DNA of 64,000 bases from Candidatus Parcubacteria bacterium. GTDB lineage: Bacteria; Patescibacteriota; Patescibacteriia; Patescibacteriales; BM507. Positions 7,360-43,447 of this stretch are shown here, piece by piece; position 1 is the first letter of the stretch, and each line of letters begins with the position of its first letter. The translations under genes and the position numbers were made by a program. The notes under the pieces were generated by a model. That model did no database searches, was not told the DNA's origin, and saw only the letters and a list, made by a program, of their open reading frames with translations. The stretch is from the NCBI GenBank assembly GCA_002869265.1, contig PKTH01000005.1, positions 1,423 through 65,422 of the forward strand, in the 5' to 3' direction.

Positions 7360-7427
7360 TAATGGCGTCTTTTAAATAAGACCAAATAAATACTTAACAA
7401 GTTAAAATCAATATTGTGAGAAAATCA

Positions 7428-10572
<3,145 letters not shown>

Positions 10573-10761
10573 TTTTCTCACACTATTGACTTCAACAGTG
10601 TTTGAAATCGACTATCAGCAAAATTGATAGTCTAAATTTAAAATTGCAATATTGCAAATTTTAGATGCTTGTTAAGTATTTAAATGTCAAAGGTCTTATT
10701 AGAATTTTTATCAGCAATTTAATTTCTTAAATTACTGAACCAATCTTCTAATTTTTTAACA

Positions 10762-11047: not shown

Positions 11048-12094
11048 TTATTTCAATTTTTCAATTAATTCCGGGTTGTCCATATAAGCTTGAGCCTCAG
11101 TTTTTTCAATTAATTTCTCTTTGTACAGTCTCTTGATGTCTTGATCTATACTTACCATTCCCTCTTTTGAGCTTGTTTCAATAACTGTTTTTAGTTGTGC
11201 AATTTTATTTTCACGAATCAAATTTGAAACTGCTGGATTGTTTATCATTACCTCTCTGGCAGCCACTCTGCCACCGTCTATCTTATGCAAAAGTCTTTGT
11301 GAGACAACACCAGCCAAAGTATTAGCAACTTGCATTCTCACTTGATTTTGTTGATGGGGAGGGAATATGTCAATAATACGATCAACTGTTTGAGCGGCGT
11401 TGTAGGTATGAAGAGTAGCTAAAACTAAATGTCCTGTCTCAGCCAAAGTTATGGTGGTTGCAATAGTTTCCAAATCCCTCATCTCTCCAACCATGATAAC
11501 ATCAGGGTCTTGTCTCAGAGCATGCTTTAAGCCATTGTTAAAACTCATCATGTCTCTTCCTAATTGTCTTTGAATAATGACACTTTTATCGGCCTTAAAC
11601 TGATATTCAATTGGATCTTCAAAAGTAATAATATTTGCTCTTCTGTTTGTGTTGATATAATTAATCATTGCAGCCAAGGCGGTTGACTTACCACAGCCCG
11701 TAGGTCCTGTTACCAGTATAAGACCATGTTTTAAATCTAAAAGGTTATAAACTATCTCGGGCATTTGAATTTCTTCCAAAGTAGGCATCTTGTCTGTTAT
11801 AACTCTTGCCACCAAGCCAATATTTCCTCTTTCATAATGAATATTAACTCTAAATCGATAATCTCCTAGTTCCGTACCAAAATCTAGTTCTTTATACTCC
11901 GTAAATTTACTTTTTTGTTCGGCATCTAAGGAGCTTAAAACCATTGTTTCCATGTCTTTTTCCCCAAGCTCCTTCTCTCCTTCTATATCTACAAGCTCTC
12001 CATCAATTCTTAGAAAGGGTGGCCTACCCACAACTAAATGCAAATCTGAAGCCTTTTTCTCAATTGCTATTTTAAATAAGTCTTTTAATGTCAT
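11048..12094 (-). CDS. pilT: Type IV pilus retraction ATPase PilT
   Basis: 348 aa. Walker A GPTGCGKST, Asp/His boxes, and PilT-size secretion ATPase blocks (MVGEMRDLETI, GHLVLATLHT). Confidence 0.85.
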   Translation of the reverse strand: MTLKDLFKIAIEKKASDLHLVVGRPPFLRIDGELVDIEGEKELGEKDMETMVLSSLDAEQKSKFTEYKELDFGTELGDYRFRVNIHYERGNIGLVARVITDKMPTLEEIQMPEIVYNLLDLKHGLILVTGPTGCGKSTALAAMINYINTNRRANIITFEDPIEYQFKADKSVIIQRQLGRDMMSFNNGLKHALRQDPDVIMVGEMRDLETIATTITLAETGHLVLATLHTYNAAQTVDRIIDIFPPHQQNQVRMQVANTLAGVVSQRLLHKIDGGRVAAREVMINNPAVSNLIRENKIAQLKTVIETSSKEGMVSIDQDIKRLYKEKLIEKTEAQAYMDNPELIEKLK

Positions 12095-27476: not shown

Positions 27477-28652
27477 CTAATTATTTTCAATTTTACTAAT
27501 AATTTTTTCAATCAGTTTCGAAATTTCATCCAAGTCGTTTGTTTTTGGCAGTCCTTTTATCATGATTGGTTCAAAGTATTCTTTTTCCATGTCTCCAAGG
27601 GCATTCTCGATTGTCTCTATTGTTCTTCCTCCCCAACCATAAGAACCTATAATCCCCACAAATTCTATCTTTGATTTTAACAATCTTATCACATTCATAG
27701 TCAGGACGACAAGTGGGTGGGCTTCATTCAGCATGGTTGGGGTCCCCACAATCACAAAACGTGAGTCAACCAAATGCTCTACAATACCAAGCATTCCTTC
27801 TTTTTCAATATCAACTACCACAGCTTCAATGTTTTCTGCTCTTAGCTTTTTCTCTAGATCTCTAACCAAAACTTCTGTGCTGCCATGCATGCTAAGATAA
27901 GGAATAAGAACTTTGTCTTTGTTTTCTCCTGTGGTCCAGCTTTGATAAGCGTTTAAAATAAGTTCAGGGTTTTTATATATTGGACCATGACTTGGTGCAA
28001 TCATTTCCAATTCCAGACTATTTACTTTTTCAAGATTACGTTTTATCAGTTCCCTAAAAGGCATCATGATGGCCGCGAAATATATTTTTGCTTGCTTTAT
28101 TACGTTTTCAGATTCATTGTCTGATACAAAAATATTTTTATTTGACATGTGCGCTCCAAAAAAATCACAAGAGAATAATATTTTTTCTTCTATTAAATAA
28201 GTCGAAAAAGTCTCTGGCCAATGAACCCATGGCGTAAAAATAAATCTCAAGGTTTTATCACCAAGGGAGACTTCTTGATTTTCAACGACCAACTCAAAAG
28301 AATCTTCTCTTATATGCAAAAGGTCTATTAACATGCTCTTGCAATATGCTGTTGTTAATACTTTTGCTTCTGGGTATTTTTTTAAAACCTCTCTAAGAGA
28401 ACCGGAGTGGTCTTGCTCAGCATGATTCGCTACAATATAATCAATTTTTTTTACCTGTTTTAAATTTTTTAGAAGCTCTTCGCTTTTAATATGGTCGACA
28501 GTGTCAATCAAAACGGTTTTTTCACTCCCTTCTATTAAATACGAATTATAACTAGTCCCTTCACTTAATGGTAAAAATGCATCAAACATTTTACGACTAG
28601 TATCGTTTACCCCTACATAGAAAACGTTTTTTGCTATTGGTTCTAATTTCAT
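27477..28652 (-). CDS. Flavodiiron protein (FprA / rubredoxin:oxygen oxidoreductase-like)
   Basis: 391 aa. Metallo-beta-lactamase-like diiron domain (NHAEQDHSG) fused to a C-terminal flavodoxin domain. Confidence 0.85.
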   Translation of the reverse strand: MKLEPIAKNVFYVGVNDTSRKMFDAFLPLSEGTSYNSYLIEGSEKTVLIDTVDHIKSEELLKNLKQVKKIDYIVANHAEQDHSGSLREVLKKYPEAKVLTTAYCKSMLIDLLHIREDSFELVVENQEVSLGDKTLRFIFTPWVHWPETFSTYLIEEKILFSCDFFGAHMSNKNIFVSDNESENVIKQAKIYFAAIMMPFRELIKRNLEKVNSLELEMIAPSHGPIYKNPELILNAYQSWTTGENKDKVLIPYLSMHGSTEVLVRDLEKKLRAENIEAVVVDIEKEGMLGIVEHLVDSRFVIVGTPTMLNEAHPLVVLTMNVIRLLKSKIEFVGIIGSYGWGGRTIETIENALGDMEKEYFEPIMIKGLPKTNDLDEISKLIEKIISKIENN

Positions 28653-41844: not shown

Positions 41845-41922
41845 ATTAATGGTCTTGATTAATTTCAAATGTCGTGTTAACATATTTTTAGCTCCTGGGT
41901 AGGAGTTTTTGCTTTCAGATAC

Positions 41923-41996
41923 GCACTTGTAGCTCAATTGGATAGAGCACTTGGCTTCGGACCAAGGGGTTGTGGGTTCGAGTCCTACCGGGTGCA
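41923..41996 (+). tRNA. tRNA-Arg (anticodon TCG)
   Basis: GCACTTG-TA-GCTC-AATTGGATA-GAGC-A-CTTGG-CTTCGGA-CCAAG-GGGTT-GTGGG-TTCGAGT-CCTAC-CGGGTGC-A. Confidence 0.88.
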
Positions 41997-42008
41997 CACA
42001 ACATATTT

Positions 42009-42082
42009 GGCAGGGTAGCTCAGCTGGTTAGAGCGCGACACTCATAACGTCGAGGTCGCGGGTTCAAGCCCCGCCCCTGCTA
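42009..42082 (+). tRNA. tRNA with CAT anticodon (elongator Met, or Ile2 if lysidinylated)
   Basis: GGCAGGG-TA-GCTC-AGCTGGTTA-GAGC-G-CGACA-CTCATAA-CGTCG-AGGTC-GCGGG-TTCAAGC-CCCGC-CCCTGCT-A. It lacks the initiator features (no C1:A72, no GGG/CCC anticodon stem). Confidence 0.85.
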
Positions 42083-42114
42083 CTAACAATGTCACAAGCA
42101 ATTGTGGCATTTAT

Positions 42115-42187
42115 GCGCTGTTAGCTCAGTTGGTAGAGCAGTTGCCTCTTAAGCAAACGGTCGCAGGTTCGAATCCTGCACGGCGCA
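42115..42187 (+). tRNA. tRNA-Lys (anticodon CTT)
   Basis: GCGCTGT-TA-GCTC-AGTTGGTA-GAGC-A-GTTGC-CTCTTAA-GCAAC-GGTC-GCAGG-TTCGAAT-CCTGC-ACGGCGC-A. Confidence 0.9.
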
Positions 42188-42547
42188 CAGAAATATAAAC
42201 CCGTTTTTACGGGTTTTTATTTTTGGGTGATGTGCATCGTGAGAACCTGCCTTGCGACAAGTGCCAGGATAGAGTGGTGCTTTGCTTCTAGGTAGGAATA
42301 CAAAATATAATAACAAACACTTACGATTTGGGTGTTAGGGTTTACTCTTTCGAATCCTGCACGGCGCACAATAATAAAGTCCACCTCTTGTGGGCTTTTT
42401 TGTTGGGATTGTGCAGATGAGAACTTGCTCTGTGATAAAGAGTAAAGACTATAAGAACGTTGCTTGTCAGCAGGAAGTTTGCTCAAATAGATGTTTGTCC
42501 GATTAGGGCGTTGGGATTTAATCCCTTCGAATCCTGCACGGCGCACA
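42168..42547 (+). repeat. Tandem ~180-bp array carrying three identical copies of the tRNA-Lys 3' end
   Basis: TTCGAATCCTGCACGGCGCACA occurs at 42168-42189 (inside the tRNA), 42349-42370 and 42526-42547. Each copy is followed by its own hairpin+T-run. The two inter-copy segments are recognisably related (TTGGGTGATGTGCATCGTGAGAACCTGCC vs TTGGGATTGTGCAGATGAGAACTTGCTC). Confidence 0.8.
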
Positions 42548-42680
42548 ATAAAATCGTAGTGAAGGCAACGGTTTTTTATTAGAAAATTTCTCAAATATTA
42601 TAAAATAAACAACTTCAAGCACAACAAAGCTAGAGTTTTTTCTAAGTGATATACATTTACCACATTCCCACTCTGAGAAA

Positions 42681-42708
42681 TTGACAAAAATAAAATATAT
42701 GTTATATT
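42681..42708 (+). promoter_or_regulatory. Sigma70-type promoter for the NUDIX gene
   Basis: TTGACA, 16-nt spacer, TATATT. Confidence 0.5.
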
Positions 42709-42772
42709 GTTATGTCGTTCATTTTACTTCCAAGACAGTAATTATTCTCAATAAATAAAAGGAGAAAAAATA

Positions 42773-43447
42773 ATGACTACTCTGATTAAGACGATAAAAG
42801 CAGATGAGCAAGACAAGAGAAGTTGGACAGTTGAACTAAATGGAAAAAGACTTGAAGAAGTTGAAACCGTAAGAATATTTAATGAAAATTTTGGAGAACT
42901 AAATTACGGCATGACAATTCCTGGCTATGACGGTATTTCTTTTCATGAGAATTCTGGAGGAGGTGTCGTGTGTGTTCCTTTTGTGGTCATTGATGGAAGA
43001 TTGTACATTGGTATGGTTCAGCAGGAAAGACACAATCAAGGAGGAAAGGTCTGGAACCTACCCAGAGGTTTCATTGACCCCGGAGAAAACCACTTTGAAG
43101 CCATGGCGAGAGAATTTGAAGAGGAGATTAGATACTCTTCTCCTGATAAAATGGTAAAACCACTTTCAGGTGATCCGTGTAATCCGAATAGCGCCTTCTT
43201 CGAGACCCCCAACAAAAATGAGGGGGTAAAATTTTTCTCAATTGAGGTGTTACCGAAACAACTAGAGCTGGAAAGTATCTCTGGAGGCTTTCGCTTTCGA
43301 TCTGGAATTCTGAAGCCCCTAACAAAAGCTGCAGAACAAATATATTCTTGTCGCTTTTTCCCATGGAGGGAAACCTCCTGTTCCTCTGATATGTTTACAG
43401 TTGCTGGCATAGCAAGATTGCTATCTTCTCAATTTATTAGCCTTTAG
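42773..43447 (+). CDS. NUDIX hydrolase
   Basis: 224 aa. NUDIX box GGKVWNLPRGFIDPGENHFEAMAREFEEEI (Gx5Ex7REUxEExGU). AAAGGAG SD and a terminator hairpin follow the expected positions. Confidence 0.8.
   Translation: MTTLIKTIKADEQDKRSWTVELNGKRLEEVETVRIFNENFGELNYGMTIPGYDGISFHENSGGGVVCVPFVVIDGRLYIGMVQQERHNQGGKVWNLPRGFIDPGENHFEAMAREFEEEIRYSSPDKMVKPLSGDPCNPNSAFFETPNKNEGVKFFSIEVLPKQLELESISGGFRFRSGILKPLTKAAEQIYSCRFFPWRETSCSSDMFTVAGIARLLSSQFISL

Follow-up and report, generated by a model that had tools for sequence, protein, structure and literature searches.

The 64,000-nt window analysed here (the whole stretch taken from contig PKTH01000005.1 of a Candidatus Parcubacteria bacterium) carries, directly behind a tRNA-Lys(CTT) gene, an array of two tandem units, each made up of an intrinsic terminator, a structured domain of about 145 nt and a 22-nt tail that repeats the tRNA-Lys 3' end. 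The array is probably (at a rough probability of 0.6) a pair of modules of the type known as tRNA-linked repeats (TLRs), appended to the tRNA-Arg/Met/Lys operon of this bacterium. The hallmark of the TLRs of Escherichia coli is a 3'-terminal stretch of 18-19 bp that exactly repeats how the gene directly upstream ends (PMC8144298), and the array, judged from its sequence, appears to share every architectural feature of these repeats; it does not belong to the RtT sequence family. An earlier note on this DNA had described the repeated tRNA ends, with integration scars and small RNAs as its two explanations, and had not recognised the architecture as being of the E. coli TLR type (PMC8144298).

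The 22-mer TTCGAATCCTGCACGGCGCACA, which spans the tRNA-Lys from T-loop position 54, the first base of the T loop, to the discriminator plus CA, is found without a mismatch at 42168-42189, where it forms the last 22 nt of the tRNA-Lys, and again at 42349-42370 and 42526-42547, all on the + strand. Both the three exact copies reported in the earlier note and its statement that no further copy follows the NUDIX gene are borne out: nowhere else in the 64 kb does the 22-mer match with three or fewer mismatches, and shuffled sequences give no match at all. The copies are spaced by 181 and 177 nt and delimit unit A (42190-42370) and unit B (42371-42547), which begin 1 nt past the tRNA-Lys tail on the + strand and have the same order of parts: terminator, a 5' motif complementary to the tail (here called the anti-motif), a body with conserved blocks, a small hairpin, and the tail.

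Unit A opens with terminator T1 (42197..42225, +; hairpin 42197-42216), detected by terminator scan, which has an 8-bp stem AAACCCGT/ACGGGTTT, a 4-nt loop and a T-run; on the minus strand, too, this hairpin is scored as a terminator, and related hairpins with compensatory changes lie behind the tRNA-Lys genes of relatives L102, L104 and L107. The structured core that follows (42224..42370, +) is supported by alignments, by its predicted fold and by a match of 133 bits (E=2e-28) to a covariance model of the units, R1. It contains the anti-motif GTGATGTGCATCGTGAGAACCTGC (42227..42250, +), recognised as an inverted repeat that pairs with the tail in the consensus fold, then GCGACAA in the place of the family block GTGATAA, a TGCTT..AGGTA hairpin at 42283-42294, the CGATT and GTT.GG blocks, a degenerate GC hairpin at 42337-42348 and the second tail copy.

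Unit B begins with terminator T2 (42376..42404, +; hairpin 42376-42398), likewise detected by terminator scan, with a 9-bp stem AAAGTCCAC/GTGGGCTTT and a T-run; 24-25 of its 26 nt are the same as in terminators of the tRNA-Lys arrays of L103 and L104. Its core (42403..42547, +), supported by the alignment and by an R1 match of 119.7 bits (E=2e-25), holds the anti-motif GGGATTGTGCAGATGAGAACTTGC (42405..42428, +; placed by the unit alignment and the consensus fold), GTGATAA, a TGCTT..CAGCA hairpin at 42461-42472, the CGATT and GTTGGG blocks, the GC hairpin GGGATTTAATCCC at 42513-42525 and the third tail copy. The array ends with T3 (42550..42577, +), a weaker hairpin AAAATCGT...ACGGTTTT with a T-run that is seen in a 486-nt fold and not in the terminator scan; no anti-motif follows it. 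That a different hairpin with a T-run stands behind each tail copy, as stated earlier, is confirmed. The segments between the tails had been called diverged homologs of each other at both ends; they are homologous over their full length, with a body identity of 53% and scores of 133 and 120 bits for units A and B under the one covariance model, so the homology stands and its restriction to the ends does not.

The array is base-for-base the same in the JGI 3300007102 and ENA ERZ794998 assemblies, and is therefore a real feature and no assembly artefact; the Logan assembly of SRR5894287 breaks within the locus, as repeats often make assemblies do. In the array region ARAGORN and the Rfam tRNA model recover just the three true tRNAs, and in the units they see neither a cloverleaf nor a pseudo-tRNA; besides tRNA no Rfam family reaches threshold on the window array or on that of L104. 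A promoter scan found no sigma-70-like promoter inside the units, consistent with expression by read-through; a TTGCTT-N18-TATAAT candidate in unit A was discarded, its spacing not being constant in other units. A small-peptide reading was likewise set aside: the ATG or GTG of the UGAGAA motif opens ORFs (open reading frames) of 18 and 29 aa whose starts, frames and stops are not conserved and which have no ribosome-binding site.

The anti-motif corresponds, in diverged form, to the reverse complement of the tRNA-Lys acceptor 3' strand and T arm. Its inverted T loop has TGAGAA, whereas exact complementarity would require TTCGAA; an inverted repeat with 42-nt arms, 74% complementary, is centred on the loop of T1. 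With the anti-motif paired to its own unit's tail, the fold of unit A has an energy of -46 kcal/mol (z=-3.0), and when it is paired back with the preceding tail across the terminator the value is -47.8 kcal/mol (z=-6.9). Ten long units from the window and its relatives were aligned (71% mean column identity), and the blocks GTGA.AA, TGCTT, CGATT and GTT.GG are invariant among them. RNAalifold predicts four helices for the alignment, namely the terminator, the anti-motif:tail stem, a TGCTT..AGGCA hairpin and the GC hairpin by the tail. The 23 consensus pairs are formed in 93% of cells, compared with 36-48% after shifting the partners by 1-3 columns; nine of the 23 have changed on both sides, and covariation scores 0.364, whereas shuffles give 0.225 and none of 500 comes up to the observed value, a statistic inflated by the relatedness of the sequences, in which independent events are few.

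The 8 pairs of the closing stem between anti-motif and tail are 91.5% formed, and four of them have changed on both sides, following the Arg, Lys and variant-Lys tails: the window units pair GUGCA with the tail segment UGCAC, the second Lys unit of L104 pairs GUACA with UGUAC, and the first Arg unit of L104 pairs CGGUA with UGCCG. One more closing-stem G-C pair becomes A-U in the Arg units, whose anti-motif has been adjusted at three positions to fit the Arg tail. Since the closing-stem pairs change with the tail, the 5' motif stays complementary to the tail of its own unit. This supports the second explanation in the earlier note, that of small RNAs which end in a tRNA-like 3' tail and are closed through a long-range stem, in that the 5' motif both pairs and co-varies with the tail across its Lys, variant-Lys and Arg versions. 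Moreover, G-U pairs make up 29 of the 215 paired cells; read on the opposite strand they would turn into A-C mismatches, and the fold therefore belongs to the tRNA (+) strand only. For a possible kink-turn reading of the GA motif the standard strand polarity could not be fitted, and an extra helix between the GTGATAAA and ACATTTACGATT blocks, for which there are weak hints alone, is not claimed.

Related arrays were located by way of the adjacent methyltransferase, which is 61-67% identical in relatives L102, L103, L104-L106 and L107-L108 and served as the synteny anchor; the NUDIX gene was rejected for this purpose, its homologues at 57-67% identity sitting in tRNA-free sugar-nucleotide clusters. 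From L102 to L108 the common order is AI-2E transporter, RecQ, methyltransferase and tRNA-Arg/Met/Lys, with HU, YmdB and RNase Y also following the array in L102. Neither tail copies nor units lie behind tRNA-Arg or tRNA-Met in the window, which has its two units at tRNA-Lys. L102 has none at tRNA-Arg and one each at tRNA-Met and tRNA-Lys; L103 has none at the first two and, at tRNA-Lys, only a terminator, an anti-motif and about 25 nt; L107/L108 have none at the first two and at least one at tRNA-Lys, where the contig ends within the unit. L104-L106 have three Arg units, two to three Met units and three Lys units; the Met arrays of L105/L106 and the Lys array of L104 are interrupted by runs of N, and their exact counts are uncertain. 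An apparent copy-number polymorphism between L104 and L105/L106 (two versus three Met units) crosses such runs and was discarded as untrustworthy.

In all of these arrays the tail matches the tRNA directly upstream, switching to that of Arg or Met in relatives; in L104-L106 it reads TTCGAATCCTGCCGGGTGCACA behind tRNA-Arg, TTCAAGCCCCGCTCCTGCTACA behind tRNA-Met and TTCAAATCCTGTACGGCGCACA behind tRNA-Lys. Arg- and Lys-tailed units have the same body as the window units, the Arg-tailed ones being confined to one lineage, and Met units have the same plan with a different body. The comparison of related tRNA-Lys loci that the earlier note had proposed did reveal a variable number of units, whose evolution preserves their structure.

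Farther afield, a plain 18-mer scan returned 76 stretches, about a third of which are chance matches in GC-rich coding DNA, and across GTDB genomes and JGI metagenomes 49 tRNA-Lys genes are identified by the tail. Downstream copies of the tail (one or two) were found at eight of the 44 unrelated tRNA-Lys genes with enough downstream sequence, in both CTT and TTT isoacceptors, and at 0/70 of the other tRNAs of the same loci. Several of the eight loci have a UGAGAA-type anti-motif and a GC hairpin by the tail; L011 and L078 differ. Short units of 96-115 nt with the same plan, and in most cases a terminator, are present in L012, L019, L020, L083 and L089, with anti-motifs such as GTGCAGGATGAGAAG and GGATTCGAAG and a GC hairpin, GGGGCTTCCGCCCC, that is identical in four loci. 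The R1 model detects only units A and B in the window and, elsewhere, units of L061 (45 bits) and L080 (30 bits); a further match at 28148-28291 (-), with 17 bits and E=0.05, lies inside a 391-aa ORF and was taken as chance. The gapped pattern tail + N{30,60} + GTGC..GAGAA gave no match in the metagenome collection, though it matches locally.

The exceptional loci deserve separate mention. At L011:5738-6560 (GTDB CAZGKM010000015.1) each of the tRNA-Arg, -Met and -Lys genes has behind it an incomplete copy of its own 3' half from the anticodon arm, in which the 5' strand of the T stem is swapped for a common insert of 40-60 nt (consensus GGCTTCGAGATAAGCGCCGAGGAGC); these units are a different family with the same T-loop junction. 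Behind the tRNA-Lys(TTT) of L078, the unit at 11568-11663 is without terminator or anti-motif and reads as the T-stem 5' strand (AGGTTC) copied directly, two inserted hairpins and then AATCCTGC, with about 35 nt of trailer duplicated. The metagenome-assembled genomes of L008, L010, L011, L012, L016 and L017, which have a tRNA-Lys of the type seen in the Candidate Phyla Radiation (CPR) together with an Arg-Met-Lys cluster, are titled 'uncultured Gammaproteobacteria' in GTDB, an assignment that looks doubtful given their content.

The repeats to which this layout is compared were first described in E. coli, where the K-12 strain has 22 TLR sequences at ten loci, in tRNA or rRNA operons (PMC8144298; Egan and Landy 1978, Rudd 1999). 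Like them, the window units lie directly 3' of their gene, on the same strand, in tandem (one to five units per locus in E. coli; two in the window and one to three per tRNA in its relatives, some of these counts crossing scaffold gaps), and end in the 3' end of the upstream gene, over 18-19 bp in E. coli and 22/22 nt in both window units. The unit size is also alike, about 178 nt at E. coli tyrT against 177-181 nt in the window. In the E. coli tyrT-tyrV-rttR locus (L094) the 178-nt units end in AATCCTTCCCCCACCACCA, and the rttR annotation ends exactly at that CCA. The window tail, by contrast, is without CCA, since none is encoded in the tRNA gene; the window units have no detectable sequence homology with the TLRs, each has its own intrinsic terminator, and the host is a CPR bacterium and not an enterobacterium. 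The tyrT repeats rely on Rho.

Parallels are also found in the fold of RtT (Rfam RF00391, encoded as rttR in the tyrT-tyrV operon), whose consensus pairs GGGGAAGGAU with AUCCUUCCCC and to which the E. coli units score 133-138 bits. RtT carries GGAUGAGAAC / GGGGAAGGAUGAGAAcCUUCG, an inverted T arm of tRNA-Tyr with the same UC-to-GA change as in the Parcubacteria units (UUCGAA to UGAGAA); its closing stem likewise joins this 5' motif to the T-stem and acceptor part of the tail, leaving the last nucleotides single-stranded, and a GC-rich hairpin lies just 5' of the tail. A tandem G-A motif in RtT has covariation support (bioRxiv 10.1101/2020.02.04.933952). The inner domains, however, are unrelated, and RtT is tied to tRNA-Tyr, whereas units of the window type are tied to tRNA-Lys and tRNA-Arg. 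No RF00391 match was found in 41850-42800 at E<=10 (the gathering threshold is 45 bits), nor did the R1 model match anything in the E. coli tyrT locus.

The E. coli gene tpr (L094:1288-1377), which is annotated as a 29-aa 'protamine-like protein', has its annotated start at the AUG in the GGAUGAGAAG anti-T-loop motif of RtT. In the Parcubacteria units the ORFs that start at the equivalent AUG or GUG are short and not conserved, which suggests that tpr may be a by-product of the RtT RNA motif.

Among TLRs of rRNA operons, rrA, rrB and rrF are placed between T1 and T2, the two successive terminators of rrn operons, and are made by read-through of T1 and processed beside the repeated tail (PMC8144298). 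This read-through expression is a feature of the rrn TLRs, which share with the window the placement of the unit between two terminators: gene, first terminator, unit ending in a copy of the gene 3' end, second terminator. Both the read-through and the processing by the repeated tail have been shown experimentally in E. coli. RrA, RrB and RrF bind Hfq and CsrA (PMC8144298); they differ from the window units in following 5S rRNA and in binding these two proteins via GGA motifs, and no such partners are predicted for the window units. Taken together, the tail copy, the UGAGAA closing stem, the per-unit terminators and the changes that track three different tails argue that the layout is selected and not accidental.

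By analogy with RtT and with RrA, RrB and RrF, RNA polymerase that passes a leaky terminator behind the tRNA would transcribe the next module. The tRNA would fold first during transcription, and the anti-motif would pair once the next tail emerges, forming a stem that has 8 pairs, a 2x2 internal loop and ACA overhanging at the 3' end and that may resemble the acceptor helix. Given that resemblance, the enzymes of tRNA 3'-end maturation would be expected to release the module at the same position. The level of module RNA would then report transcription of the tRNA operon, lowered by each terminator in turn, and the released RNA could bind a protein; or the stacked terminators might simply insulate the next gene.

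Several points weigh against interpreting the array as a pair of TLR-type modules. The TLRs of tRNA operons are without an established function even in E. coli, where an early link of rtT to amino-acid starvation has been withdrawn (PMC8144298), and in the lack of sequence homology to the E. coli repeats the resemblance may be convergence. Transcription of the modules, read-through and processing are deduced by analogy, and T1 and T2 look like efficient terminators, which could leave little module RNA. The partner of the anti-motif might instead be the upstream tail, reached across the terminator, a pairing that covariation cannot separate from that with the unit's own tail; the truncated units at L103:4594-4680 and L061:300-360, which follow the last tail, keep a terminator and a well-preserved anti-motif with no further tail, which bears on whether the anti-motif pairs upstream or downstream. 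Finally, the body identity between the window and its relatives (55-61%) is just modestly above that of the saturated fourfold sites of the adjacent gene (37-57%), so that the argument for selection depends on the conserved blocks and a handful of compensatory events that arose independently.

The alternatives are taken here in declining order of likelihood. The one that survives best is neutral tandem duplication, in which slippage or unequal crossing-over copied the tRNA 3' end with its trailer, the copies drifted, and gene conversion keeps the tails the same. It would accommodate the varying unit copy number among related genomes, arrays of the L078 type, in which the plain tail and about 35 nt of trailer are duplicated, an overall identity near saturation, and the fact that assemblies break or scaffold across the arrays. 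It is nonetheless unlikely: the blocks GTGA.AA, TGCTT, CGATT and GTT.GG are invariant across species whose synonymous sites are saturated, compensatory changes keep the four helices, the anti-motif of the Arg units is matched to the Arg tail at three positions, and the same architecture occurs again in E. coli.

A more speculative possibility, and an improbable one, is that the units are self-propagating tail-capped elements of RNA and DNA, copied between tRNA genes (from Lys to Arg, and from CTT to TTT), which would gain their tail and a matching anti-motif through templating at the T loop or the terminator palindrome, and whose processed RNAs might act as acceptor/T-arm mimics that titrate a tRNA-binding factor. 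If it were true, TLRs would be an ancient and widespread regulatory or parasitic system common to Proteobacteria and the Candidate Phyla Radiation.

It is also doubtful that the terminators themselves are the selected function, three in succession insulating the downstream gene from a very active tRNA operon with the RNA as a by-product. Three hairpins with T-runs do stand within 400 nt, T2 is the same at 24-25 of 26 nt across species, and dual terminators flank the rrn TLRs of E. coli (PMC8144298). Such a function, however, leaves unexplained both the exact tRNA tail before each terminator and the conserved, co-varying domain of about 145 nt, and the internal terminator is missing in some arrays (the first hairpin of L083 is without a T-run, and L078 and L019 are further cases).

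Somewhat less credible again is a selfish element at the DNA level, a miniature non-autonomous unit with inverted-repeat ends that targets tRNA T loops and is spread by a recombinase acting in trans or by templated inverted duplication at the terminator palindromes. The inverted repeat of anti-motif and tail does bound the unit, and the T1 region is an 88-nt quasi-palindrome centred on the terminator loop. The Arg units of L104 are closer to the Lys units of the same genome (63-69%) than the Lys units of the window are to those of L104 (57-61%), which suggests spread within a genome or concerted evolution. Against this, the copies occur only behind tRNAs (two in the 64 kb, and other loci likewise), and R1 finds no dispersed copy in the 64 kb or in 378 kb of other loci; examined as a candidate miniature inverted-repeat element, the unit shows its inverted repeat and no visible flanking target-site duplication. 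No candidate recombinase is linked to the arrays, and the G-U pairs favour an RNA fold of one strand.

The other explanation offered in the earlier note was serial integration, in which tyrosine-integrase elements entered the T loop of tRNA-Lys, supplied replacement 3' ends and later suffered internal deletions. In the T-loop class of attachment (att) sites in tRNA genes the identity block runs from the T loop to the 3' end, and the direct repeat in the window resembles the attL/attR pair of such an element. The absence of an integrase gene, noted earlier, holds for the genes called over a span that reaches some 4 kb upstream of the array and some 5 kb downstream of it. None is found among the 25 of 60 Pfam families listed for the 79 ORFs that lie no more than 3 kb downstream of 51 tRNA-Lys loci, where at most one or two loci could hide one; those listed are housekeeping families (RecA, adenylate kinase, DnaB, CysS). 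A search of viral contigs likewise gave no attP-bearing counterpart: neither the exact tail nor the conserved hairpin-plus-tail string matches any of 2.9 million viral contigs (plasmid collections not covered), and no contig has two distant tail copies bracketing an element. The identity block running from the T loop exactly to the 3' end, the gain and loss of units between lineages and the presence of one unit body on tRNA-Lys genes of both the CTT and TTT type and on tRNA-Arg would fit integration scars, but this is very unlikely for an array without recombinase, cargo or viral counterpart, whose tiny, structured and tail-tuned units keep conserved blocks and compensatory changes across species and in every case leave the tRNA with its own acceptor strand.

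As TLR-type modules, the units would extend to a Parcubacteria lineage with a very small genome an architecture that was described in E. coli in 1978 and that is discussed, in the literature searched, for enterobacteria only. They would open a comparative route to the role of TLRs, by way of constrained positions, tail-recognising enzymes and the movement of units between tRNA genes. For annotation, such arrays break assemblies, yield spurious ORFs and can pass for att sites.

The window, with about 35% GC, looks like a bacterial chromosome with 23S and 5S rRNA and five tRNAs, and NCBI assigns proteins encoded on either side of the array to "Candidatus Parcubacteria bacterium". Three of these form the cluster ahead of the array, all on the + strand and all found by ARAGORN: tRNA-Arg(TCG), the first, at 41923-41997 (Rfam tRNA 65.6 bits), tRNA-Met(CAT) at 42009-42083 (64.5 bits) and tRNA-Lys(CTT) at 42115-42188 (70.6 bits). 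The genes called around the array are those for RecQ, the methyltransferase, NUDIX, HU, YmdB and RNase Y. The gene 3' of the array encodes a NUDIX protein (42773-43447; Pfam E=8e-11) and is preceded by a promoter-like site, TTGACA-16-TATATT, at 42681-42708, in agreement with the earlier description of a NUDIX gene with its own promoter. In relatives the NUDIX gene is absent from this position (in L102 the tRNA array is followed directly by HU), and its homologues sit elsewhere, in sugar-nucleotide clusters without tRNAs; its placement in the window is therefore lineage-specific.

The 125-aa ORF that crosses the array on the minus strand (42217..42594) had already been considered spurious and is not part of the feature: it has no Pfam match, and the homologous arrays of relatives contain no stop-free stretch longer than 75 aa, so that the frame is not kept open.

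No 16S rRNA was found across the 64-kb window, and the rRNA genes therefore appear to be unlinked. The 23S rRNA match at 7416-10579 (-) spans 3164 nt, compared with the 2925 positions of the model, which suggests one or more insertions. Just 5' of tRNA-Arg, at 41888-41912, a hairpin with a T-run, AGCTCCTGGGTAGGAGTTTTTG, is kept in L102, L104, L107 and L012, and could be either the terminator of the methyltransferase gene or part of a leader of the tRNA operon.

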